Source: Bacilli bacterium
Lineage (GTDB): Bacteria > Bacillota_I > Bacilli_A > RF39 > UBA660
Direction of reading: 5' to 3'
Assembly: GCA_051872765.1 (NCBI GenBank)
Contig: JBJEED010000091.1
Coordinates: forward strand, 17,878 to 81,877
DNA length: 64,000 nucleotides
In this document: positions 2,762 through 36,732 of the stretch, piece after piece
Numbering within the stretch: position 1 is the stretch's first letter
How the letters are laid out: each line of letters starts with the position of its first letter
Program-made: the position numbers and the translations under genes
The notes under the pieces: generated by a model
What the model was told of the DNA's origin: nothing
The model's database searches: none
What the model saw: the letters and a program-made list of their open reading frames with translations, nothing else

Positions 2762-4147
2762 ATGACTACAGAAGAGTTATGGAAAGAATTTTTATCACGG
2801 ATAAGTAAACGAGTTTCTCCAATTACATATAATTGTCTTTTTAAAGATTTAAAATTGCATTCTTATAAAAACAGTAAATTTACTATAATAGTTCCTGATA
2901 GTAATAATAATGAATTGTATATACAAAATTTAAAAGATTCTTACAACATAATAGTTGAAGATATTGCTAATGATTTAACTAACGATACTTGTGAGATAGA
3001 ATATATACTACAAAAAGATATAAAAAAATTAGATGAAGAAGAAGAAAAACAAGAAAGTAATAATGATCAAATAGAAAATATTACTAATTATAAATATAAA
3101 AGTAATTTTAATCCTAAGTACACTTTTGATACTTTTGTAGTGGGTGAATCAAATAAATTAGCATATGGAACTGCTTTATCTGTTGCACAAAATCCAGGAA
3201 AATTATATAATCCATATTTTATTTATGCTAAAAGTGGTCTTGGAAAAACACATTTAATGCATGCAATAGGTAATTACATAGTTACACATTCAGATAAGAG
3301 AGTTTTATATATAAGTTCTGAACAATTCATTAACGACTATGTTTCTATAGTAAATACTAGAAATAAAAATAATAACAATATTACTTATTTAGAGGCTTTT
3401 AGAGAAAAATATAGAAATGTTGATGTACTAATGATTGATGATATACAATTTTTAGAAAAAGCTACCAAAACACAAATTGAATTTACAAATACTTTTAATA
3501 CATTATATGATAATGAAAAACAAATTATAATTGCATCAGATACTTCTATTAATGATTATAAATATTTAGAAGATAGATTAAAAACTAGATTTGGTTGGGG
3601 GTTAACGGAATCGATAAATCCTCCGGAATTTGAATTAAAAAAGAATATAATAAGAAAAAAAGTTATGCTTAATGATTTTCCACAACTAAATGAAGATGTA
3701 GTTGAATATATTGCTAATAATTGTGGAAGTGATATTAGAAATCTTGAAAATGCAGTAATTAGATTGGTTGCTTATAGAGTAACATTAAATATTAATGAAA
3801 TTACTTTAGAGGTAGCACAAAATGCTTTAAGAGAGTATGTAGGACAAGTAATATATAGAACTAATTCTGTTTCCAAAATTATTGATGTAGTAGCTAAATA
3901 TTATGGAATAGATTCTTCTATGATTAAAGGTAAAATGAGAAATAAAAATGTTGTTACAGCTAGATCTATTGCAATATACCTTAGTTGTTTAATGACTGAT
4001 GAAAGTCAAGAAAGAATAGGATTAGAAATGGGGGGAAGAGATCACTCGACAATAATTTATTCAAGGGATAAAATTACTGAAGAATTAAAAGTTAATTTAA
4101 AATTACAAGAAGAAATAAAAATTTTAAAAGAAAAAATTTGTGAATAA
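2762..4147 (+). CDS. dnaA: Chromosomal replication initiator DnaA (start taken at ATG 2762 after RBS AAAGGAG)
   Basis: Walker A GLGKTHL, conserved AAA+ core, C-terminal DnaA-box-binding domain. Position after rpmH. Confidence 0.95.
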   Translation: MTTEELWKEFLSRISKRVSPITYNCLFKDLKLHSYKNSKFTIIVPDSNNNELYIQNLKDSYNIIVEDIANDLTNDTCEIEYILQKDIKKLDEEEEKQESNNDQIENITNYKYKSNFNPKYTFDTFVVGESNKLAYGTALSVAQNPGKLYNPYFIYAKSGLGKTHLMHAIGNYIVTHSDKRVLYISSEQFINDYVSIVNTRNKNNNNITYLEAFREKYRNVDVLMIDDIQFLEKATKTQIEFTNTFNTLYDNEKQIIIASDTSINDYKYLEDRLKTRFGWGLTESINPPEFELKKNIIRKKVMLNDFPQLNEDVVEYIANNCGSDIRNLENAVIRLVAYRVTLNINEITLEVAQNALREYVGQVIYRTNSVSKIIDVVAKYYGIDSSMIKGKMRNKNVVTARSIAIYLSCLMTDESQERIGLEMGGRDHSTIIYSRDKITEELKVNLKLQEEIKILKEKICE

Positions 4148-4278
4148 ATCAACCAGTTATCAACAAACTAACAAATATAAAAAAATAGAAAACCCTGTTA
4201 ATAACTTAACATAAACTAGTTATCAACAATATCAACACTTAATAATAATATGATTTATATAAATAAGGAGGTAAAATT
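4148..4278. promoter_or_regulatory. dnaA-dnaN intergenic oriC segment with DnaA boxes
   Basis: TTATCAACA at about 4160-4168 and 4222-4230, plus TATCAACAC at 4232-4240, in AT-rich spacer. This is the typical Firmicute oriC/DUE location. Confidence 0.6.
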
Positions 4279-5397
4279 ATGAAATTAATAATTGAAAAAA
4301 ATATTTTAATGGAAGGATTAAATGCAGTAAGTAGAGCTTTATCTACAAGAAATATAATACCTGTATTAAATTGTATCAAATTTGATTTACAAAATAATGG
4401 ATTATATTTAACAGCAACAGATAATGATATAACAATTCAATATTATATTGATAAAAAAGATATAAAAAGTATTGAAGAAACAGGATGTTCTATTATTTAT
4501 GGAAAAACATTATTAGAGGTTATTAGAAAATTACCTGAAACAGATATTTTAATAGAAAATTTTGAAAATAACGAAGTATCTTTTAAAACAAATAATTCTA
4601 TATATAATTTTAATTGTTATATGGTTGAAGATTATCCAAACATTTCTTTAGAAGAAGGAAAAAATCCGATAAGTATATCAAGTAATAAATTTAAGGAAAT
4701 AATTAATAAAACAACATTTGCTTGTTCATTACAAGAAAGTAACCCTGTATTAACAGGTGTAAATGTAAAAATTCAAGGAGATTTATTTGAATGTATTGCT
4801 ACAGACTCATATAGAATTTCAAAGATTAATCTAAAATTAGATGAAATGTATATTGAAAATATAAATATCGTGATTCCAGCAAAAAATATAAATGAATTTG
4901 CAAAAATTATAAATTCTGATTCAAAAATGGAAATACATGTATTTAGTAATAAAGTTATATTTAAGTTAGATAATATTATTTTTCAATCATCATTATTGAA
5001 TGGAAATTATCCACAACTTGAAAATATTTTTCCAAATGAGTTTGAATATAAAATAAAAGTAAATTTAAAAGATTTCTACAATACTTTAGATAGGGCATCA
5101 TTATTAACTGGATCTAGTAAAAAATATATTATAGATGCAGAAATTAAAGATAATTATTTGAAATTAAAAGCATCAAGTGCAGAAATGGGTAAAGTAGAAG
5201 AAAAAATTAGTATAGAAAATTTAACTAATAATAATATATACATATCATTTAGTTCAAAATATGTGCTTGAATCATTGAAGATGTTTAGTAGTGAAGATAT
5301 ATATATATTATTAAATAGTGGTGTAAAACCATTTGTGTTAAAAGAAGTTGATAATGATAATTTTATTCAACTTGTATTTCCTATTCAAACTAATTAG
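4279..5397 (+). CDS. dnaN: DNA polymerase III beta sliding clamp
   Basis: 372 aa, beta-clamp three-domain pattern, directly after dnaA. Confidence 0.95.
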   Translation: MKLIIEKNILMEGLNAVSRALSTRNIIPVLNCIKFDLQNNGLYLTATDNDITIQYYIDKKDIKSIEETGCSIIYGKTLLEVIRKLPETDILIENFENNEVSFKTNNSIYNFNCYMVEDYPNISLEEGKNPISISSNKFKEIINKTTFACSLQESNPVLTGVNVKIQGDLFECIATDSYRISKINLKLDEMYIENINIVIPAKNINEFAKIINSDSKMEIHVFSNKVIFKLDNIIFQSSLLNGNYPQLENIFPNEFEYKIKVNLKDFYNTLDRASLLTGSSKKYIIDAEIKDNYLKLKASSAEMGKVEEKISIENLTNNNIYISFSSKYVLESLKMFSSEDIYILLNSGVKPFVLKEVDNDNFIQLVFPIQTN

Positions 5398-5505
5398 TAA
5401 TCATTTAGTAATATTTAAAAGAAAATGTAATAGTTTATTTAAAATAATTAATAAATTATTACATTTTTTATTGTGTAAAACAAATATATTGGAAAATTTT
5501 TCCTT

Positions 5506-5532
5506 TTCGACAAAAAATGACAAAATTCGACA
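5506..5532. promoter_or_regulatory. Two Spo0A-box matches (TTCGACA, which is TGTCGAA on the other strand) 20 bp apart
   Basis: Exact 7-mers at 5506-5512 and 5526-5532, about 50-80 bp upstream of the comK-like start. CG-containing 7-mers are rare in this AT-rich genome. Confidence 0.4.
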
Positions 5533-5584
5533 AACGTAATATGTTAGTATAGCAATCAATTTTAAAGAAAGGGGGTATTATACA

Positions 5585-6046
5585 ATGAAATATGAAATCA
5601 ACTCAGATACTCAAGTAATCTTACCAATTAGTAAAGAGTGTACAAAGGTCATAGAACAGGGAGACGAATATATATTAAATATAGCTTGTCATGAAATATT
5701 AGAACATAGTTGTGAATATTTTGGTAGTTCATATGAAGGTAGAAAAGAAGGAACAAAGAAAATTTTAGGTATTACACATAAGGCTCCAATAATAATTGAA
5801 GAAAGTAGACAAATAATATTTTTTCCAACAACTTCACCAGATAATATTAACTGCGTATGGATTAATTTAGAAAAAATTGAAAAGTATTTTAAAACAGATA
5901 CTAGAAAATCAGCAATTATTTTTAAAGACGGAACAACATTAGAATTTAATATATCTTATGGATCTTTAACAAATCAAATAATGAGAGCAACAAGATTAAA
6001 ATATGTTTTAAATGAAAGATTAATAAAAAAAGAAGATAATAAATAA
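5585..6046 (+). CDS. comK: ComK-family competence transcription factor homolog
   Basis: 153 aa; CEYFGSSYEGRKEGT...ITHKAPIII...QIIFFPT...ISYGSL aligns block by block with B. subtilis ComK (CRFFGSSYAGRKAGT...ISHKPPIMV...QIFLFPT...ISYNSF). Confidence 0.8.
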   Translation: MKYEINSDTQVILPISKECTKVIEQGDEYILNIACHEILEHSCEYFGSSYEGRKEGTKKILGITHKAPIIIEESRQIIFFPTTSPDNINCVWINLEKIEKYFKTDTRKSAIIFKDGTTLEFNISYGSLTNQIMRATRLKYVLNERLIKKEDNK

Positions 6047-6149
6047 AATTATCTTTTTTTATAAGGAAATTTGTGGTATAATCTTATTAGTGAGTAGGAG
6101 TACTATTTAAATAAAAAATTCAAAAATTGGGGGTTAAAGAGGTTTAAAA

Positions 6150-7229
6150 ATGAATATTACAAAAATTGAACTAAATAATTTTAGAAATTACAAGAAAAAA
6201 ATTTTTGATAATTTTTCAAATTTAAATATTATTATTGGTAAAAATGGTATAGGTAAAACATCTATACTTGAAGCAATTTATTTAGGTAGTTTAGCTAAGT
6301 CTTTTAAAACTACATCTGAATTGTCCATAATTAAAACAGGAACAGATTATTTTAGAATAAAAATATATTATTTTGATGATGGACAAAAAAAGAATTTAGA
6401 GTTGTATTTAGATAAAAATGGCAAAAAATCAAAAATAAATTCAAAATTACAAAATAAATTAAGTTCTTTTATTTCTCAATATAGAATAATTTTACTTTCT
6501 CCAGATGAATTAAAATTAATTAAATCATCACCTAATATTAGAAGAAATTATTTAAATATACAAATATCACAGTTACATAAAGAATATCTTTATTATTTAA
6601 ATAATTATAACGTGCTTATTAAAAATAAAAACGATTATTTGAAAAAACTATTAACTAATAGTACATTAGATACAAGATATTTAGATATATTAGATAAAAA
6701 AATAGTAGAAGAGGGAATAAAAATATATAATTATAGAAAAAAATATATAGATTCTATAAATAAATATATTAATTCAATTTTTAAAAACTATGTAAAAAAT
6801 AATGAAATTGAATTAAATTACATATCTGACTATGAAATAAATGATAAAGATAAATTATTAAAAGAACTTAAAAGAAATAGAAGAAAAGAGATTAATATTG
6901 GTATGACTTCTTTTGGTATTCATAGGGATAATTTTGAATTTATGCATAATGGAAATAATTCTAAAGAATATAGTTCTCAAGGATTACAAAAATTAATAGT
7001 TTTAGCTATGAAATTGTCTGAAATAAAAATATTTATGGATGATTATCAAATAACTCCTATTTTATTACTTGATGATTTATTTAGTGAACTTGATGAAAAA
7101 AATAGAAATAATATTTTTAAATCATTAAATAAAGATATACAAATATTTATAACAACTACAGATTTAAAAAATATTAATAAAAATATTATAAAAAAAGCCA
7201 AAATATATGATTTAAATGAGAGGGTGTGA
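6150..7229 (+). CDS. recF: DNA replication and repair protein RecF
   Basis: N-terminal Walker [18 protein letters not shown]-like ABC ATPase, C-terminal D-loop [11 protein letters not shown]. Position dnaN-recF-gyrB. Confidence 0.9.
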
Positions 7230-22686: not shown

Positions 22687-23184
22687 ATGAAGAATACTGG
22701 TATAGTAAGAAAGATAGATGAGCTTGGAAGAATTGTACTTCCAAAAGAATTAAGAAAAAGCTTAAATATTGCGACTGGAGATGACTTTCAAATCACATTG
22801 GATGATGAAAAAATAATTTTAGAGCGATACTCTAAATTAAAAAACTACAATGATGAGTTAATTAAAATAACTAATTGTTTCTCATCTATACTTAATTATA
22901 AAATATATATAGTTGTAAACAATAAAGCACTTGGAATTAATGATGAAGTAAACTCTGGTGTTATGAAAATTATACAAGAGAGAAAGTTTTTTGTAAATGA
23001 TCATGAAGAAAGATTAAACATTTTAATGAATACAATTGATGAAGGAAAGTCAGTTATACAACCTATTGTTATAGATAGTGATTTACTTGGAGCAATAATA
23101 ATAGTTGGAAAAGATAAAATAGAGAACATAGTTAATACTTCTAAAATTATTAATAATATAATAAAATCAAATATATTAAATTAG
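22687..23184 (+). CDS. spoVT: Stage V sporulation protein T (AbrB-family regulator with GAF-like C-terminus)
   Basis: N-terminus MKNTGIVRKIDELGRIVLPKELRKSLNI is a SpoVT/AbrB swapped-hairpin; it follows mfd. Confidence 0.85.
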   Translation: MKNTGIVRKIDELGRIVLPKELRKSLNIATGDDFQITLDDEKIILERYSKLKNYNDELIKITNCFSSILNYKIYIVVNNKALGINDEVNSGVMKIIQERKFFVNDHEERLNILMNTIDEGKSVIQPIVIDSDLLGAIIIVGKDKIENIVNTSKIINNIIKSNILN

Positions 23185-25527: not shown

Positions 25528-27423
25528 GTGGTTTATGTGATAGACTCATATTTTGCAAGTATTGGATTTACATTAAGTGGTTTATTATTTATGCTTACAG
25601 TATTTGTAATGTTTGTATCAAAAAAGAAAGAAAATAATGAAGAAAGTCGAATATTTTTTTATCTATTAATAATTACAATATTACTATTATTTTTAGAGTT
25701 TGCAACTAGTTATACAATTTCCAAAATAGATGAGTTAACATTATTAAATACTATTTTAGGCAGATTATATATCGTTCTTATATATCTTTGGGCAGGAGGA
25801 TTTTTATTATATATTACAACCTTACTACTTAATAATGAAGAAAAATATAAAAATAAAAATAAGAAAAAGTTTTTTACTATTTATATAATCGTATCTATTA
25901 TTGTAGCAATTCTTATGTCTATTATATTTAAAGTAGAGTATTCTAATGGTATGAATGGAACACCTTATGTTATAGGTGGAACAGCTATCACTATATTAAA
26001 TATATTAATTATTTTTGGAGGATTTTTATTAATAACAATTTTATCAAGTTATAAAAATATTATAAAGAATATTTGGATGACTCCTATTTATATAATAATA
26101 TTGGCTTTTATATTGATTACTTTACTTCAAACATTCTTTAATTATCAAATAAATGATACAGTATTATTTTTCTCGCTAATAATTGAAACTTTATATTTTA
26201 CAATTGAAAGTCAAGATAATAAATTATTAGAAGAATATAAAAAATCAAAAGAAGATGCAGAAATAGCTAATAAAGCAAAAACAGAGTTTTTGATTAATAT
26301 GTCACATGAAATCAGAACCCCAATGAATACAATTTTAGGATTTAGTGAATCTTTATTAAAAGATCCTGTACTTGTTGAAGAGACAGTTAAGAATGATTTA
26401 AAAAGTATTAATTCTGCAAGTTCAACTTTAATGGACTTAATTAACAATATATTAGATATATCAAGACTTGAAGCTGGTGAAGAAGTATTAAATGATTCTG
26501 AGTATAATTTAGAGACATTAATATTTGAAATTAATAGTTTAATTCCAGCAAAGATAGAAAAAGAAGAATTAAAATTTACTATTGAAATTAATGAAAGTAT
26601 ACCTAAAGGTTATTATGGTGATGCTTACAAATTAATTAAGATTTTATGCTATGTATTAAGAAATGCAATTGATTATACCAATTATGGAGAAATTAAACTT
26701 AATGTTGATGGTAAAAAAGTAGATGCACAAAACTTTGAATTTTGTTTCTTAGTTTCAAATACAGGTCATGCAATGACTCAAGAAAGTTTCAATATGGATT
26801 TTGCGGATTATGTAAAAATTGAAAATGCATCACAAAAAAATAATGTAAAAACTATTAATCTTGGGTTAATTATAGCAAAACAATTAACTGAGTTAATGGG
26901 CGGTGAAATTGAATTTGTTAATGAAAGAGGACATGGAACTAGATACTTTATTAGAATAAAGCAAAAAATAACTAATGAAGAAAAAATAGGAAATATATTT
27001 GAAAGTAATGCTGGACATGTTTCTAGTAGTAGAGATATATTAAATTGTGAAGGTAAGAAAGTTTTAATAGTTGATGATAGTGAAATAAATTTAAAACTAG
27101 CATCAAGGTATATGAGTCAATTTAATTTTACTGTTACTACTGCGACAAATGGAAAAGATTGTGTTGAATATATTAAAAATAATAATTATGATATAGTATT
27201 TATAGATCATATGATGCCAGATATGGATGGTGTTCAAACTGTTAAAGCTATGGAAGCAACTGGTAAAAAATTGCCACCAATAATTGCTCTAACAGCAAAT
27301 GGATATAAAGGTCTAAAAGAAAGATTTGTTTCAGAAGGTTTCACAGATTATCTTCAAAAACCACTTAATTTTAGAGATTTAAATAAATTAATCAATAGAA
27401 TATTTGGTCAAAATGGTAATTAG
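25528..27423 (+). CDS. Orphan hybrid sensor histidine kinase (polytopic N-term, HisKA, HATPase_c, C-terminal receiver)
   Basis: H-box [16 protein letters not shown]-box GLGLIIAKQ, receiver [12 protein letters not shown]...[14 protein letters not shown]. Confidence 0.8.
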
Positions 27424-27441
27424 GAAGGGAGTGAAATTAAG

Positions 27442-29283
27442 ATGACATTTGAATTAATATTAACTGAAGGTACAGTTGCATTTATACTATTATTATTAAT
27501 GATGTATTTTAAAAAACAAACCTTCAAAAACTTAAAGACATTTATGTTTAAATTATTATTAATATTTAGTTTATCCTTTTCTGCTTTTGAAATAATATCT
27601 GTATTATTGTTAGATGTAATAGATTCTAATTTAATAAATACTATTATATGGAAATTTCACTTTGTGATTAGCATGTTATTTAATTTAGTATTCTGCTATT
27701 ACATATTAAGTGCTTTATCTGAAGAAGAGAAAAAATCTTTTAAAGAACTTTTTACAGCTAGTTTAATATCTAAAATTGTATCTGTAATAATATTTATTAT
27801 CATAATAGGATATATTGTTTTGCCAATAGATAATATAAATCCAGAAACATTAAATTTTATTCCAAACTATAGTATATATTTTTATATAGCATGTGTATTA
27901 ATCGCATTAATTGTAACAATGATTACTTTGTCAAAAACAAAGAAAAAGATTTCTAAAAATAAAAAGCCTTATTATATTTATGCTACTATTATTCCTTTAG
28001 TTTTTATACCATTGCAAATAATATTTACTCAGGTTTCATTTTTACCTTTTGCATTAATATTACAATTATATGATTTATATTTCTTCATTGAAAATCCAGA
28101 TTTAGAAATCTTAGAAGAAATAACAACAGCACAAGGAGATATTGAACAATCTAATCAAACAAAAACAGATTTCTTATCTAATATGACATCTGAAATAAAA
28201 GTTCCAATGAATCTAATTGTTAGTTTATGTGATGAATTGACTAGTATGCCAGTATTTAATGAGAAACTTGTTAGAGAAGATATTTCACAAATATATACAT
28301 CAGGTAATAGTTTATTAGACATAGTAAATAATATATTAGATATATCTAAAATTGAAACAGGTAAAGGAACGCTTCAAGAAAGAGATTATAAAGTTAATAA
28401 TTTGTTAACTGATGTAATTAATATTGCTAAATCAAAAATTGGTGCTAAACAAGTAAAATTAATGGTCAATGTTGATCAAAATATATCATCTGTATTAAAT
28501 GGTGACTATTCTAAACTTTATCAGGCTTTGACAAATATAGTCACAAATGCTGCTAAATTCACGGATGTTGGTAAAATTACTTTTACATTAACTAGTACAA
28601 AAGCATCAAATGTCGAGAATCTATTATTTAAAATCAGTGATACTGGTTCAGGTATTAAAGAAGAAGAACAGGCAATGTTATTTCAAAAAGGTGTTAGACT
28701 TGCAAATGCTAAGCAAAGTGAGATTGAAGGTAGTGGTTTAGGACTAGCTATAACAAAAGAATATATTGAACTTTTGGGTGGTAAAATATGGTTTGATAGT
28801 CAATACAGAGTTGGTACTACTTTTTATATTGAAGTTCCACAAAAAATAGTTGATTCAACACCAGTAGGTGCAGCAAAAGAGAAAAAACAAACTACTGAAA
28901 AGCTTGATTGTTCTAAGTATACAGTGCTTATTGTAGATGATAATAACTTAAATATTAAAGTTGCAAAAAGACTTCTTGAAACTTACAAGTTTAAAGTTGA
29001 AAGTGTTACTTCTGGTAAAGATTGTGTTTATAAAATAAAGGAAGGAACACATTACGATGCAATATTCATGGATCATATGATGCCTGAGATGGATGGTATT
29101 GAAACATTACATGTACTTAAGAAATTAAATGGTTATGAATTACCTCCTATTATTGCATTAACTGCAAATGCAGTTGCAGGTATGAGAGAAATGTATCTAA
29201 GTGAAGGGTTTGATGAATATTTATCAAAACCAATAAATACTACTGACTTAGATAGAATAATTAATGAATTATTTAACAAATAA
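27442..29283 (+). CDS. Second orphan hybrid sensor histidine kinase, paralogous to the upstream gene
   Basis: Same architecture; receiver VLIVDDNNLNIKVA...AIFMDHMMPEMDG. Confidence 0.8.
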   Translation: MTFELILTEGTVAFILLLLMMYFKKQTFKNLKTFMFKLLLIFSLSFSAFEIISVLLLDVIDSNLINTIIWKFHFVISMLFNLVFCYYILSALSEEEKKSFKELFTASLISKIVSVIIFIIIIGYIVLPIDNINPETLNFIPNYSIYFYIACVLIALIVTMITLSKTKKKISKNKKPYYIYATIIPLVFIPLQIIFTQVSFLPFALILQLYDLYFFIENPDLEILEEITTAQGDIEQSNQTKTDFLSNMTSEIKVPMNLIVSLCDELTSMPVFNEKLVREDISQIYTSGNSLLDIVNNILDISKIETGKGTLQERDYKVNNLLTDVINIAKSKIGAKQVKLMVNVDQNISSVLNGDYSKLYQALTNIVTNAAKFTDVGKITFTLTSTKASNVENLLFKISDTGSGIKEEEQAMLFQKGVRLANAKQSEIEGSGLGLAITKEYIELLGGKIWFDSQYRVGTTFYIEVPQKIVDSTPVGAAKEKKQTTEKLDCSKYTVLIVDDNNLNIKVAKRLLETYKFKVESVTSGKDCVYKIKEGTHYDAIFMDHMMPEMDGIETLHVLKKLNGYELPPIIALTANAVAGMREMYLSEGFDEYLSKPINTTDLDRIINELFNK

Positions 29284-29392: not shown

Positions 29393-30142
29393 ATGAATAG
29401 TAAATTTAAAGTTGGTGACTATGTCACAAGAAAAAAATATAATAATGATATCGTATTCAAAATTAAAAGCATAAATAGAGATGTGATTATTTTAAGTGGC
29501 GTAGATGTTAGATTATATGCAGATGCATATGCTAATGATTTAGTATTAACATCAATTAGTAAAAAAAAAGAAGAGATAAGCACACTTAGAAGTTTAGATG
29601 TGGATAAATATTTTTATATTCCTGGTAAAGTACTTCATATAGATGCAGATAAGAATTATTTGGAAAAATGTAAAGAATATTATGAAACACAAAAAGTAAA
29701 GTATTATGGTTATATATTTAAAGAAAAAGATTTTAAAGAAAAAGTAAATAATCTTATTCAAAAACATAAGCCTGAAATTGTTGTTATAACTGGTCATGAT
29801 GCATATTATAAAAATAATAAATATAAGAATAGTAAATATTTTATTGATGCTGTTAAACAAATTCGAGATAAATATCCAAATGTAATTATAATAGCGGGAG
29901 CTTGTCAAAGTGATTATGAGGGACTTATAAAAGCAGGTTCAACATTCGCATCAAGTCCATCACATATTAATATTCATGCTTTAGATCCAGCTATAATTGC
30001 TTCATATATAGCACTAACTAGTAAAGATAAAACTATTGATTTAATAGAAATGTTATCAAAGACAAAGTATGGTAGTGAGGGAATAGGTGGATTTGTGATT
30101 AATGGTACTATGAAGATGGGATATCCAAGAAAAAAGGAATAA
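29393..30142 (+). CDS. yabG: Sporulation-specific protease YabG
   Basis: N-terminus MNSKFKVGDYVTRKKYNNDIVFKIKSI resembles YabG; yabG-veg order. Confidence 0.8.
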   Translation: MNSKFKVGDYVTRKKYNNDIVFKIKSINRDVIILSGVDVRLYADAYANDLVLTSISKKKEEISTLRSLDVDKYFYIPGKVLHIDADKNYLEKCKEYYETQKVKYYGYIFKEKDFKEKVNNLIQKHKPEIVVITGHDAYYKNNKYKNSKYFIDAVKQIRDKYPNVIIIAGACQSDYEGLIKAGSTFASSPSHINIHALDPAIIASYIALTSKDKTIDLIEMLSKTKYGSEGIGGFVINGTMKMGYPRKKE

Positions 30143-31286: not shown

Positions 31287-32414
31287 GTGGGTAAAAATAT
31301 GAAAAAAAATATATTGACATTTTATATATGTAATATAATAATTATAGCCTTAATTGTATTATTTAATAATAAGAATTATAGTATTCTATTATGGATTTTA
31401 TTAACTATCTTTTTATTTTTTAAGTGTGGTTTTCCTAAAGATAAAAATTATTTAAAATATAATACAATTCAAATTGTAATAATTAGTATATTCTCATATT
31501 TTTTAATTACTTATAGTCTTGGTTTAATTACGGGATTTAGTAAAAATTTTTTTGATTTAAATATTAAATCGATTATTATGAATATGCTATATCCTTTTAC
31601 TTTGATTACTTGTCAAGAACTTATTCGATATATTTATGCTAAAAATTGTGTAGATGATATAAAGCCATATATTATGCTTACTTTAGTATATATTTTTTTA
31701 GAAATTTTTACTCAAGTTAATGGATATAATTTTTACAATTTTGAAATATTGTTTAAGTTTATATGTTTAGTAGTATTAAAAAGTATTTCTCATGAAATTC
31801 TATATAGTTATATTACTTATAAGATTAGTTTTATACCTACATTAATTATGAAACTAACATTTGGTTTATATATATACATTATACCTATATTTCCAAATTT
31901 AGGAGAATATTTAATGTCTCTTTTTGGAATATTATATCCGGCTTTGGTTTATGTAATGATATATAAAACTATTCAATCTTATGATAAAAGTAGTAAATAT
32001 GTGACTTCAATAAAGAAAAAATATTTGCTATATCCTGTAATTTTATTTTTATGCATAATTGCAGTACTTACATCAGGTATTGGAAAATATCAAATGATTG
32101 CAATTGGATCTGGTAGTATGGAACCAATATATAAGCGTGGTGATGCGGTAATCTTTACTAAGATAAAATCACTTGAAGAAGTGAAAATTGGTTCCATTAT
32201 AGCATTTACTAAAAATAATATACTAATAACACACAGAGTGGTAAATATTGAATATAAAAATGGTGATTATCAATTTATCACAAAAGGGGATAATAATAAA
32301 GATATTGACATTGGAACTGTTAGTGGCAGTAATGTTAAAGGAATTGTGATACATAAGATTCCTTATATTGGATATCCAACAATATGGATTAATGAAAAAC
32401 TAGGTAATATATAA
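31287..32414 (+). CDS. sipW: SipW-type (ER/archaeal-type) signal peptidase I fused to an approximately 250-aa N-terminal polytopic membrane domain
   Basis: C-terminal catalytic domain has IGSGSMEP (catalytic Ser), ITHRV (His) and KGDNN. The N-terminal half has about 7 predicted TM helices. Confidence 0.7.
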   Translation: MGKNMKKNILTFYICNIIIIALIVLFNNKNYSILLWILLTIFLFFKCGFPKDKNYLKYNTIQIVIISIFSYFLITYSLGLITGFSKNFFDLNIKSIIMNMLYPFTLITCQELIRYIYAKNCVDDIKPYIMLTLVYIFLEIFTQVNGYNFYNFEILFKFICLVVLKSISHEILYSYITYKISFIPTLIMKLTFGLYIYIIPIFPNLGEYLMSLFGILYPALVYVMIYKTIQSYDKSSKYVTSIKKKYLLYPVILFLCIIAVLTSGIGKYQMIAIGSGSMEPIYKRGDAVIFTKIKSLEEVKIGSIIAFTKNNILITHRVVNIEYKNGDYQFITKGDNNKDIDIGTVSGSNVKGIVIHKIPYIGYPTIWINEKLGNI

Positions 32415-32436
32415 AAAGAATAAGTGTGGTGATAAT

Positions 32437-33522
32437 ATGAAAAATGATGATAATTCTTTGTTTATGAGAAAAATTTATTATTTACTCATTGTTTTTTCAA
32501 TTATCATTTTAAGTATATGCTCTTATTTTTATATAAGAATGGGATTAGATAATAAGGTAAAAAATGTTTTAGATTACGAAAGTAGTAGTGATATAAATTA
32601 TAAAGTATATTTAAAGAAAAATAACTTTTTTAATGAAGAATATTTAACTATGAATAAAACTTATATTGCAAGTTTAATTGATCATTTAGATGTTATTTTT
32701 ACATATAATCTTAAATATAGTGAACTTGTATCTGGAAAGTATAATTATTATGTAAAAGCTACTATTTTAGCTGATAAAGATGCATCTAGTAATACAAATT
32801 ATTGGTCTAAATCTTATATTTTAACAGAACCAGAAACTATTGAATTTAGTAAAATTAATAATTATAATATCACCACTAGCGTAATAGTTGATTATCAGAA
32901 ATATAGTGATTTGCTTAAAGAATTTAGAAAAGAATATGGATTATCTATCACTGGTTTATTAAAATTAGAACTTATTGTTGAAAGTGAGACAAAAAGTGAG
33001 TCTATTGAAAATGTTGCTAATATAAATTCTTCTTCTGAATTAACTATTCCTCTTACTGAGCAAGCAATTGAATTATCTATTAATGCTGAAAATGATAGTA
33101 ATTCTGGAAGCATAGTAGAAGAGGTTGTATTAGATAATATTAAATATAAAATATTTTTAGTGCTTGGTACTATTTTAGGAATTTTAGCAATCATATTACT
33201 TGGAATATTTATTTACGAATTAATAATGTTATATCAAAGTAAAAGTAAATATTCGATAGAACTTAAAAAAATAATGTCTTCATATGATAGTATAATTGTA
33301 AATGTTAGTAGTATGCCTAATTTTACTAAATATAAAGTTATTAACGTACTTTCATTTGATGAGTTAATTGATGCTCATAGTGAAGTAAGAATGCCAATTA
33401 ATTATTATGAAGAGAAGCCTGGATGTAAAAGTGTTTTTGTACTTATTAATGGTGATATTGTCTGGATGTATACATTGTTAGATGAAAATTATAGAAAAAG
33501 AATTTTAAAAAAGAAGTCATAA
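32437..33522 (+). CDS. Hypothetical bitopic membrane protein in the matrix operon
   Basis: TM at the N-terminus and near residue 235; no family recognised. Confidence 0.45.
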   Translation: MKNDDNSLFMRKIYYLLIVFSIIILSICSYFYIRMGLDNKVKNVLDYESSSDINYKVYLKKNNFFNEEYLTMNKTYIASLIDHLDVIFTYNLKYSELVSGKYNYYVKATILADKDASSNTNYWSKSYILTEPETIEFSKINNYNITTSVIVDYQKYSDLLKEFRKEYGLSITGLLKLELIVESETKSESIENVANINSSSELTIPLTEQAIELSINAENDSNSGSIVEEVVLDNIKYKIFLVLGTILGILAIILLGIFIYELIMLYQSKSKYSIELKKIMSSYDSIIVNVSSMPNFTKYKVINVLSFDELIDAHSEVRMPINYYEEKPGCKSVFVLINGDIVWMYTLLDENYRKRILKKKS

Positions 33523-33560
33523 TTATTTATAATATAATAGAAAAGGAAAAGGAAAATCAA

Positions 33561-35900
33561 ATGTTAAAAAATCGAAATGTTATTATATATATATTTGTTT
33601 TACTAATTATTTCTTTTATGAGTGTAGGGTATGCATACTATGGACAATTGCTAGAGTTTTCTGGAAATATTAATTTAAAGCCAGATGGTAAATTTCGTAT
33701 AGATAATATAATACTTACGGATACTTCTAATGTTATAAGTAGTGTTCCACCAATTATTACAGATAATACAATTGAGTTTAATATAAGCTTTGGTGGTACT
33801 GAAAATGAGTATTATGCAATATATACAGCTGACTTCATAAATGAAAGTAGCTATAGTTATACATATAATTCTTTTAATTTTACGCCAATTGTTACCGCGA
33901 GTGGTGATGGAAGTGGACAATTATCTTTTGAAGTTAGTAATATTAATGATGGAGATGTAATTTCTCCTGGAGAGATTTTAACGATTACGTTAAAATTGAT
34001 TTTAGATGTAAGTGATTCTGAACAAACATATGATATAAATGCCAAGAGTGATGTTATATTGAATTATAATGAAAAAGGTTCTATTTTTACTAGTGTATCA
34101 CCATTATCTGTAGATTTAACTGGTACTAATGAATTAGCTTTAATTAATTTAGAGGTTATGAACACATATGGTAGAAATATTACTTTTAATATGAAATCTA
34201 GTAATAATAATTTTTCTTTAGTAAATAGTGATGGAACAGATTTAGGAAGTTTTACTATTTTAGCAAATAGTGTAGATGATTATCAAATATATTTGAAAAA
34301 GACAGATAATAGCGTGTTTTATGATTCTTCTGAGACTACAATATTAATATTACAATGTGGTACTTTAGGAAACTATAATACTAGTAAGATAACAGTTTCT
34401 GTTGATAAGTCAGAGTTAAGTGATACTAGTATTCCTGAAATTGGTGAAATTAGTTTTACTATAAATAATAATGAAGGACAGGCTGATCTTAATTGGAGTA
34501 GATTAGATAGTGGGGGCACTAGTATTATTGGTTATACAATATTACTTTATAATTCTACGAATGATACCTTAGTAAATACTTATAATACTAATAGTGACTT
34601 GACAAGTTATAGTATTACAGGTCTTGAAGAAGGAAGTTATTATGTTAAAATATATGGAACAGATCAAGCTGGAAATAATGGAAGTGGATATGTAAATGAT
34701 GCTACAACTAGTACAATTTATTGTCGTCAATCTTCTACTGTTGCTTTAAAATGGATATTTAATGTTACTAATAATTTAACTTATTTGACTTCTTCAGGTG
34801 CTAGTACTGCTTCATTAGGAAGTACATATACTGCAACATTATCGGTTTCAGGAAATGTAAGTTTGCCAACTTCTATTACAGTTACTATGAATGGTGTTAC
34901 ACTAGTAAATGGTACAGATTATACATATAGTAGTAGTACAGGACAAATATCTATTCCTAATGTAAATGGAGATATTACCATTACAGCTAGAGGAAGTGGC
35001 GTATGTTTAATTGAAGGAACAAAGATTAGTTTAGCTGATGGAAGTACTAAAAACATTGAAAATATAAGATATGATGATTTACTTCTTGTTTGGAGTTATG
35101 AAGAGGGGCGTATGGTATATGAATATCCTATTTGGATAGAAAAAGAACATAAAGCGCAATCTTATCAATTAACAAAATTCTCATCAGGAGATGAGTTAAA
35201 AACAATAGGATATCATGGCATATATAATATGGACCTTAATAGATTTGTTTCAGTTGATAATAGAGAAGAATTTGATGTTGGTACTAATGTTGCTATTATG
35301 AATGATGATAAAACAGGTTTTATATCTACTAGTGTAGTTAGTATAGAATATGTGTATGAAGAAGTAAATTATTATCATGTGGTTTCAACTAGATATTATA
35401 ATATAATTGCTAATAATATTTTAACAACTGATGGAACAGTAATATTATCTAATTTATATGGATTTGATGATAACATTATGTGGTTAAATAGAAATCAAGT
35501 AATTAATGATAAAAATAATCTTTATGATTATATAGAATTTAATGATATAATGCCATATTATATGTTTTCTGGCCTTAGAGCTAGTGAAGGTAAGTATTTA
35601 GCTAATTTAGGTTTTTTGAGTAAAGAAACATTTAAATATTATTTACTTCAAAATCAAATGAATAAAGAAATGTTGTTACCGCCAACTGTAAATAAAAATG
35701 GTATAAGACAATGGGTTGTAAAAACAAGTTTAGGATATGAAAGATTAATAGATGAGGGAAGTTATTTTTATTTAGATAATTCAAATACTTTAGGTAAAAA
35801 GATTTTATATTGGTATGATATGTCTACAGGAGTAAAATACAAACCTAATGAAAGAGTTAAAATATGGTATGGTACTTATTTTGAGGCTATATATGAATAA
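33561..35900 (+). CDS. Large secreted protein: SipW-cognate signal/TasA-like N-terminus, Fn3 domain, internal Hint (intein-like) domain
   Basis: N-terminus ...FMSVGYAYYGQ...NLKPDG; Fn3-like LNWSRLDSGGTSIIGYTILLYN...YYVKIYGTD; Hint block A CLIEGTKISLADGSTKNIENI...DLLLV at residue 482 and block F-like YYNIIANNILTTDG (about nt 35004-35435). Confidence 0.6.
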   Translation: MLKNRNVIIYIFVLLIISFMSVGYAYYGQLLEFSGNINLKPDGKFRIDNIILTDTSNVISSVPPIITDNTIEFNISFGGTENEYYAIYTADFINESSYSYTYNSFNFTPIVTASGDGSGQLSFEVSNINDGDVISPGEILTITLKLILDVSDSEQTYDINAKSDVILNYNEKGSIFTSVSPLSVDLTGTNELALINLEVMNTYGRNITFNMKSSNNNFSLVNSDGTDLGSFTILANSVDDYQIYLKKTDNSVFYDSSETTILILQCGTLGNYNTSKITVSVDKSELSDTSIPEIGEISFTINNNEGQADLNWSRLDSGGTSIIGYTILLYNSTNDTLVNTYNTNSDLTSYSITGLEEGSYYVKIYGTDQAGNNGSGYVNDATTSTIYCRQSSTVALKWIFNVTNNLTYLTSSGASTASLGSTYTATLSVSGNVSLPTSITVTMNGVTLVNGTDYTYSSSTGQISIPNVNGDITITARGSGVCLIEGTKISLADGSTKNIENIRYDDLLLVWSYEEGRMVYEYPIWIEKEHKAQSYQLTKFSSGDELKTIGYHGIYNMDLNRFVSVDNREEFDVGTNVAIMNDDKTGFISTSVVSIEYVYEEVNYYHVVSTRYYNIIANNILTTDGTVILSNLYGFDDNIMWLNRNQVINDKNNLYDYIEFNDIMPYYMFSGLRASEGKYLANLGFLSKETFKYYLLQNQMNKEMLLPPTVNKNGIRQWVVKTSLGYERLIDEGSYFYLDNSNTLGKKILYWYDMSTGVKYKPNERVKIWYGTYFEAIYE

Positions 35901-36447: not shown

Positions 36448-36732
36448 ATGGAAAATAAAACAGATGATTCATATAATCATATAATTAATATTACTGATAG
36501 AAAGGCAATATCATTATCAGGTATAAAAAAAATAAATAATTTTGATGATACAGAATTTTTTGTTGATACTATTATGGGACAGTTGATTATTAAAGGTGAA
36601 AATTTAGAATTATTAAAAATGGATACTTTTCAGGGTAATTTAACTATTAAAGGAAAAATAGTACTAATAAATTATTTAGAAGATAGTAAAAAATTTAAAG
36701 CTGATAATATTATGGCAAGGTTATTTAAATGA
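36448..36732 (+). CDS. yabP: Sporulation protein YabP
   Basis: 94 aa; the ITDRKAISLSGIKKINNFDD...LIIKGENLEL pattern is typical of YabP; followed by yabQ. Confidence 0.8.
   Translation: MENKTDDSYNHIINITDRKAISLSGIKKINNFDDTEFFVDTIMGQLIIKGENLELLKMDTFQGNLTIKGKIVLINYLEDSKKFKADNIMARLFK

Follow-up and report, generated by a model that had tools for sequence, protein, structure and literature searches.

The window analysed here, a stretch of 64 kb with a G+C content of 22%, begins with rnpA (− strand), an unknown 481-aa ORF (−), dnaA, dnaN, an ORF of the comK type, recF, gyrB and gyrA. The comK ORF (5585–6046, + strand; 153 aa, ATG start) is flanked upstream by dnaN (4279–5397, +), whose product carries the three beta-clamp Pfam domains of DNA polymerase III, and downstream by recF (6150–7229, +), identified by an SMC_N/RecF Pfam match; no S4-domain gene was found between the two. 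The GC skew changes sign at ~2.0–2.7 kb of the window and three near-consensus DnaA boxes lie at 4139–4228 in the dnaA–dnaN spacer, which bears out the proposal of an earlier, sequence-only reading of this DNA that a comK-type gene occupies the dnaN–recF slot beside the origin. A DnaA-box reading of the dnaN–comK spacer (5398–5584) was dropped because no TTATCCACA-like DnaA box was detected there at one mismatch or fewer. The 481-aa ORF (1006–2451, −), which adjoins rpmH between rnpA and dnaA, has no Pfam match and is found at 29–87% identity in ~20 related loci.

The Pfam profile PF06338 matched the product of ORF 5585–6046 with 161.1 bits (cut-off 22.3; E = 2e-47), and the match runs end to end, residues 2–145 of the ORF corresponding to positions 3–150 of the 152 in the model. 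BLASTP against B. subtilis ComK gave 37% identity and 59% positives over 147 aa (E = 2e-36), and this score together with the Pfam match upholds the original assignment of the protein to the ComK family. More than 1000 homologs, ~68–70% identical, were found in many species; public gene calls list the same product as a 153-aa PF06338 protein, and the JGI annotation of cluster members is ComK. Pfam returned nothing besides ComK for this ORF at E values up to 1, the S4 RNA-binding domain being absent, and NCBIfam returned no match. Because the alignment with B. subtilis ComK stops at residue 158 of its 192, with only seven residues of the window protein lying beyond, the latter corresponds to the core domain without the C-terminal tail. 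The C-terminal extension past the core domain that is a trait of control by MecA/ClpCP/ComS is absent, and the ~34 residues missing relative to B. subtilis are presumably the MecA-targeting region. No solved structure for the ComK family was found by sequence search. An AlphaFold2 model (m5a15045bba40; pLDDT 81, pTM 0.78) is rich in beta structure and shows a long helix at the C-terminus (residues 125–151) and a low-confidence loop (residues 47–64); a search of the PDB with this model gave no significant match, the weak best ones including LytTR DNA-binding domains (3d6w; ComE 4cbv). Judged by its sequence, the protein is a genuine transcription factor of the ComK family, cut down to the core domain.

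Several features suggest that comK is transcribed on its own. An AT-rich, terminator-like hairpin with a 20-bp stem ending in a U-run lies 3′ of dnaN (5420–5469, +; −16.3 kcal/mol, z = −5.6); none of 200 shuffled sequences was equally stable, and a hairpin with a T-run is found at the same place in related loci. A second terminator-like hairpin, flanked by A- and U-runs, spans the comK stop codon (6028–6060, +; −9.4 kcal/mol, z = −3.3), and downstream of it recF appears to have a separate promoter-like extended −10 element, TGTG-G-TATAAT (6072–6082, +), read by eye from the letters. The two hairpins and the separate recF element therefore point to comK forming its own small transcription unit. 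Terminators were judged here by RNA folding, and the comK promoter by comparison across loci, in place of a consensus promoter/terminator scan, whose promoter hits were at chance level and which is blind to AT-rich terminators; it misses the hairpin after dnaN because it requires three G–C pairs. Counts of K-boxes (AAAA-N5-TTTT) carry no information at 22% GC.

The promoter region of comK contains an array that reads TTCGACA-aaa-AATGACA-aaa-TTCGACA, with a period of 10 bp, TTCGACA being the reverse complement of the Spo0A box (0A box) TGTCGAA. Box 1 (5506–5512, +; ~−51 to −45) is exact and corresponds to the first box of the array in related loci. Box 2 (5516–5522, +; ~−41 to −35) is degenerate, AATGACA having three mismatches, although it keeps the GACA core and stands in 10-bp phase with boxes 1 and 3. 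Box 3 (5526–5532, +; ~−31 to −25) is again exact and ends 12 nt upstream of the −10 hexamer. The exact heptamers span 79–53 nt upstream of the comK ATG. An extended −10 (5540–5550, +) was read as TATG (5540–5543), one base and TAGTAT (5545–5550), and no −35 hexamer was found 17 bp upstream of TAGTAT. We infer a transcription start near 5557; a ribosome binding site, GAAAGGGGG (5567–5575, +), comes ~20 nt after the −10 element and is followed by the ATG at 5585. Boxes that cover the −35 region where a sigma-A promoter has no properly spaced −35 form an arrangement resembling that of spoIIG and spoIIE.

The exact heptamers are unlikely to stand side by side by chance. Only two exact copies of TTCGACA occur on both strands of the 64-kb window (1.17 expected), both of them upstream of comK; a similar density of such heptamers in other non-coding DNA would have weakened the case. 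Copies with one mismatch are about as frequent as chance predicts (82 found versus 93 expected). Given one exact copy, we estimate the chance of a second within 30 nt on the same strand at ~5e-4, and the pattern GACA-N6-GACA-N6-GACA occurs once in the window, upstream of comK. Spo0A~P binds as a dimer to a site of two boxes of consensus TGTCGAA, 3 bp apart (PMC2731898), and its specificity is common to B. subtilis and C. difficile (PMC3485338); the predicted sites upstream of comK show the 7-bp consensus in tandem, same-orientation boxes at 3 bp, above chance. The sequence-only reading had described two Spo0A boxes here: that they are consensus sites and far from random stands, but they are part of three boxes at the canonical Spo0A spacing of 7+3 bp rather than two isolated ones.

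One genome per species was scanned, giving 80 loci with ComK relatives, all retrieved through their ComK. All but one (79/80) come from AT-rich MAGs of uncultured bacteria from gut, rumen or caecum that carry the labels Bacilli, Mollicutes, Tenericutes or Clostridium sp. CAG; L001 (MAG SUG1194, JAQXHG01) represents the species of the window. The order dnaN–comK–recF is found in 69/80 loci, and another three, truncated at contig ends, are consistent with it; counted separately, dnaN lies upstream of comK in 71/80 and recF downstream in 70/80. This synteny is kept down to 41% ComK identity. The sequence-only reading had called an origin-linked comK unexpected; the layout is no oddity of one genome but is conserved throughout the lineage. 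Seven loci from another AT-rich lineage (L048, L065, L066, L071, L073, L075, L079) have comK between pcrA/ligA and gatCAB, a second home that likewise adjoins replication or repair genes, and in the one locus from a true Bacillaceae comK is at yet another place. The median identity to the window proteins is 58.9% for ComK, 55.9% for DnaA, 54.0% for DnaN and 59.4% for RecF; by this measure ComK is conserved to the same degree as the neighbouring replication proteins.

The array is conserved upstream of comK. Among the 71 dnaN-linked loci, exact TTCGACA boxes number three, with 3-bp spacers, in 28, two in 6, one in 15 and none in 22, and because the last group lacks any exact box the Spo0A wiring of comK would not be universal. 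The middle box that is degenerate in the window is an exact TTCGACA in 28 related loci. Of the 141 exact heptamers in 859 kb of related loci, 111 fall in the 250 nt that precede comK, all 57 TTCGACA-N3-TTCGACA pairs are confined to this upstream region, and a second array was not found elsewhere in the window or in the related loci. Box 3 and the −10 hexamer are separated by 12 nt in 36 loci and by 11 nt in another 10, and TGTG/TATG-n-TAnnnT is present at the same promoter position in nearly all related loci. Metagenome loci whose ComK is only 32–46% identical combine dnaN–comK–recF with three perfect boxes.

Phased TTCGnnA repeats of degenerate sequence are likewise found before comK where it lies beside ligA/gatCAB, which argues that the motif follows comK rather than the origin. 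In more distant lineages a conserved hairpin, in some cases with a T-run, lies between the box region and the ribosome binding site (L042–L046, L055, L057, L059, L068, L077; for example GGGGAAATTATAATTTTTTAGAGAAAATTATAATTAGAAGGAGG), and one is also present at ligA/gatCAB-linked comK genes (L066, L071, L073, L075). This hairpin may act as a leader attenuator or in translational control, replacing or supplementing the 0A boxes. In two loci from which the 0A boxes have been lost (L052, L058), the extended −10 of comK is overlapped by a perfect DnaA box, TGTGGATAA, ~40–50 nt upstream of the gene.

Metagenome contigs were then scanned for the triple array by exact pattern, and at least 120 contigs contained it. 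Among the matches listed, nine are comK promoters and 55 have identical spacers; most of the latter are probably plain 10-bp tandem repeats, and the class was left out of a Pfam survey of flanking genes, one of its members (L118) being examined separately. Among the matches listed, the array lies upstream of spo0A itself on two contigs of 60–64% G+C (L085, L194) and upstream of four histidine kinases. On one contig (L112) it stands 5′ of an abrB homolog with TGTCGAA pointing at the gene, the orientation also seen at B. subtilis abrB, and in L118 it stands 5′ of spoVS in the TTCGACA orientation, 12 nt from the −10. A perfect array is also found ~134 nt upstream of soj/parA on a contig of 26% G+C that carries rnpA, dnaA and dnaN without comK (L088). 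These genes (spo0A, abrB, spoVS, soj and histidine kinases) are classic or plausible Spo0A targets and not competence genes; no competence gene was seen among the recognisable genes flanking arrays with non-identical spacers, among the matches listed. Because the triple array is also found upstream of spo0A, an abrB homolog and spoVS in metagenomes, it would appear to be a Spo0A operator.

Five further contigs of low G+C (0.20–0.29; L098, L148, L167, L179, L186) have three exact boxes, a distance of 11–12 nt and a TG-extended −10 before unrelated genes, a layout of which no example was found on the control side. The array-preceded genes of L098, L148 and L186 have no Pfam match. All five may be members of the Spo0A regulon in AT-rich Bacilli, and we conclude from these promoter sequences that the triple-array promoter type probably recurs in that group.

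The sequence-only reading had called the host a clostridial-type sporeformer. Its clostridial part fell away, since the relatives are RF39-type gut Bacilli, among them a locus labelled Clostridium sp. CAG:1000 (L034), and the family CAG-1000 is placed in the GTDB order RF39 (PMC8035907); the host is an RF39-type member of class Bacilli. Its status as a sporeformer is plausible because the window contains yabG (29393–30142), yabP (36448–36732) and a spoVT-like gene (22687–23184) and because RF39 is predicted to form spores (PMC10868615). A spoVG gene is also present in the window. The spo0A gene is treated in that survey as indispensable for sporulation and is not among the genes listed as lacking in RF39; it has been lost in some RFN20 families (PMC10868615). 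The families CAG-826 and CAG-288 have no spo0A. Among most ORFs of at least 90 aa annotated up to ~55 kb of the window, neither spo0A nor a late competence gene was found. Contigs of this species retrieved through RnpA, all of 9 kb or less and ending at jag/trmE, likewise yielded no spo0A. A scan of IMG/VR with a Spo0A alignment retrieved full-length Spo0A on contigs not assignable to this lineage and phage-borne proteins with Spo0A_C only, none attributable to RF39. The Spo0A_C-only proteins come from dozens of viral contigs (L213–L280), match the Spo0A C-terminal DNA-binding domain alone (residues ~145–265) and, from their sequences, look like phage-borne Spo0A effector domains.

Two other groups of genes in the window were noted. 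Just 5′ of yabG lie two adjacent, paralogous hybrid histidine kinases (25528–29283, +; HisKA–HATPase_c–receiver), which are candidate phosphorelay inputs, and a cluster at 31287–35900 (+) encodes a weakly S26 signal-peptidase-like protein, a DUF5305 protein and a 779-aa ORF without Pfam match.

We propose that comK is monocistronic and under direct control of Spo0A~P through the array, a reading that we consider reasonably probable. According to this model, comK would be transcribed on its own, bounded upstream by the dnaN terminator and downstream by a terminator of its own, from a sigma-A-type promoter consisting of a TRTG-extended −10 and no −35. Three tandem 0A boxes (7 bp plus a 3-bp spacer) at ~−51, −41 and −31, with TTCGACA reading towards comK, would stand where the −35 would be. 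Spo0A~P would bind this array, most likely cooperatively, and control comK transcription directly, and ComK would then turn on a competence or K-state-like programme at the onset of the Spo0A-governed transition. We infer Spo0A to be the protein that binds the array in this host, and likewise the regulon of ComK. What ComK does in turn is the least certain part of the model: its family membership predicts activation of genes for DNA uptake and recombination, yet its conservation at housekeeping level and its two homes adjoining replication or repair genes would also be compatible with another regulon. Counting against Spo0A control are the degenerate middle box in the window and the 22/71 related loci without an exact box, while the degenerate boxes at ligA/gatCAB-linked comK fit Spo0A control and fit ComK autoregulation as well.

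The direction of this control would be slightly more probably activation than repression. Activation is favoured because there is no −35, because the distance from the array to the −10 is fixed at 11–12 nt across deep divergence and because the geometry recurs on unrelated genes including spoVS. The geometry also seems to us reminiscent of Spo0A-activated sigma-A promoters such as spoIIG. On the other side, a box centred near −28 and reaching ~−25 would more usually repress, and box R1 of B. subtilis, lying across the −35, acts as a repressing site (PMC3297582). At B. subtilis PcomK, Spo0A~P acts directly, activating through upstream boxes and repressing through boxes in the core promoter, in agreement with the earlier statement that this promoter is directly gated by Spo0A~P (PMC3297582).

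Among the alternative explanations, the TTCGACA repeats could be the lineage's own ComK operator, bound by ComK at 10-bp phasing to autoactivate its gene as at the K-boxes of B. subtilis, where ComK autoregulation is established (PMC3297582). The TTCGnnA repeats that accompany ligA/gatCAB-linked comK as well, and the finding of no further triple array in the 64 kb of the window and 859 kb of origin-proximal sequence, would suit such an operator. However, the motif is the exact Spo0A consensus at the exact Spo0A spacing, and not AAAA-N5-TTTT; arrays are found at spo0A (on the contigs of 60–64% GC), abrB and spoVS, which are Spo0A targets rather than competence genes; and no array with non-identical spacers preceded a recognisable competence gene among the matches listed. 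An autoregulatory ComK operator is accordingly improbable in our estimation. The array might instead be bound by another regulator, such as a lineage-specific response regulator, its likeness to 0A boxes being a coincidence of specificity. In several response-regulator families direct repeats at 10–11 bp typically replace a −35, the window contains two hybrid histidine kinase/receiver genes and its annotated part contains no spo0A, but all seven box positions stay at the Spo0A consensus over loci whose ComK is 32–46% identical and the arrays elsewhere go with spo0A, abrB and spoVS. We regard a different regulator as quite improbable.

The position of the array, ~1.3 kb from the dnaA–dnaN spacer with its near-consensus DnaA boxes, raised the further question of whether it serves mainly in origin control, Spo0A or DnaA restraining initiation as the 0A boxes do in B. 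subtilis oriC and comK being secondary. Spo0A~P does block initiation through 0A boxes at origins (PMC2731898), and 0A and DnaA boxes look alike. Against this, the dnaN–comK spacer has no DnaA-box match, the fixed 11–12 nt to the −10 is what would be expected of a promoter element, the identical geometry is found on genes unrelated to origins and boxes also accompany comK at the ligA/gatCAB location, so that a primary role at the origin is highly improbable. Both this explanation and that of another regulator are less likely. A final alternative concerns the protein and not its promoter, and is doubtful but deserves more weight: ComK here may regulate DNA metabolism or stationary phase in general, having been retained because of its neighbours (dnaA, dnaN, recF and gyrBA, or ligA and pcrA), and may not be a competence master regulator. 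Its median identity of 58.9% compared with 55.9% for DnaA and 54.0% for DnaN, the replication or repair genes that adjoin both of its conserved locations, the missing C-terminal tail of the B. subtilis protein and the lack of a competence gene in the annotated ORFs of the window all speak for such a role. Set against it, the characterised ComK-family proteins act in competence (PMC1524751), and synteny by itself is no proof of a functional link.

The ComK family, the 0A boxes and Spo0A control of comK were already known, and the literature searched contained no description of a comK linked to the origin, nor of ComK from RF39 or Mollicutes-type lineages. What is new is a comK in the dnaN–recF slot throughout a lineage, a near-perfect triple operator replacing the −35 and a tail-less ComK, and with them the range of the family is extended well outside Bacillales. 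ComK and Spo0A are textbook regulators, but nearly all work on the link between them concerns B. subtilis, where controls by Rok, CodY, AbrB, DegU and MecA/ComS obscure it. In this uncultured gut lineage of reduced genome it would be found stripped down and strongly conserved, as one gene with one promoter and three consensus boxes in a fixed geometry, and the promoter would offer a simple natural case for Spo0A action without a −35. Direct control of comK by Spo0A~P makes the testable prediction that sporulation signalling is coupled with DNA uptake or recombination in organisms that cannot yet be grown, and the combination of dnaN–comK–recF with the array could be used as a genomic marker to trace where Spo0A signalling has been kept or lost in RF39, RFN20 and ML615J-28.

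A more far-reaching picture can be drawn, although we offer it tentatively and think it rather unlikely to hold as a whole. In RF39-type gut Bacilli, ComK would be a core, origin-linked developmental regulator that is activated directly by Spo0A~P through a triple operator replacing the −35, and a competence or K-state-like programme would branch off early and obligatorily from a reduced sporulation pathway. The Spo0A–ComK link, indirect and degenerate in B. subtilis, would then be ancestral to class Bacilli and seen here in its simplest form, and with its gene at the origin the dosage of ComK would be linked to replication status.

Compared with known systems, the gene occupies the slot held in Bacillus, Staphylococcus and Listeria by the S4-domain protein YaaA/RlbA, in the identical order dnaA–dnaN–X–recF–gyrB–gyrA, but the two proteins have no sequence relationship, ComK being the sole Pfam match of the window protein. 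It resembles B. subtilis ComK in matching the family across the whole domain, and in both organisms comK is monocistronic with its own regulated promoter; it differs in length, 153 aa here versus 192 aa with the last ~34 residues missing, and in location, since comK is at a distal locus in B. subtilis and here at the origin between dnaN and recF. The family was once called exclusive to Bacillales (PMC1524751), whereas the present members belong to RF39-type Bacilli. With the Spo0A operators of abrB, spo0A, phage phi29/Nf, spoIIG and spoIIE the array shares TGTCGAA and the 3-bp spacer (PMC2731898, PMC3485338). Most Spo0A targets of B. subtilis have degenerate boxes (PMC3485338, PMC3297582), and three consensus boxes in a row, the third reaching ~−25, are unusually strong by comparison with known operators. 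B. subtilis PcomK also has Spo0A boxes, with one set overlapping the −35 region (PMC3297582); there, five degenerate boxes are scattered over the promoter, whereas here three near-perfect tandem boxes replace the −35.
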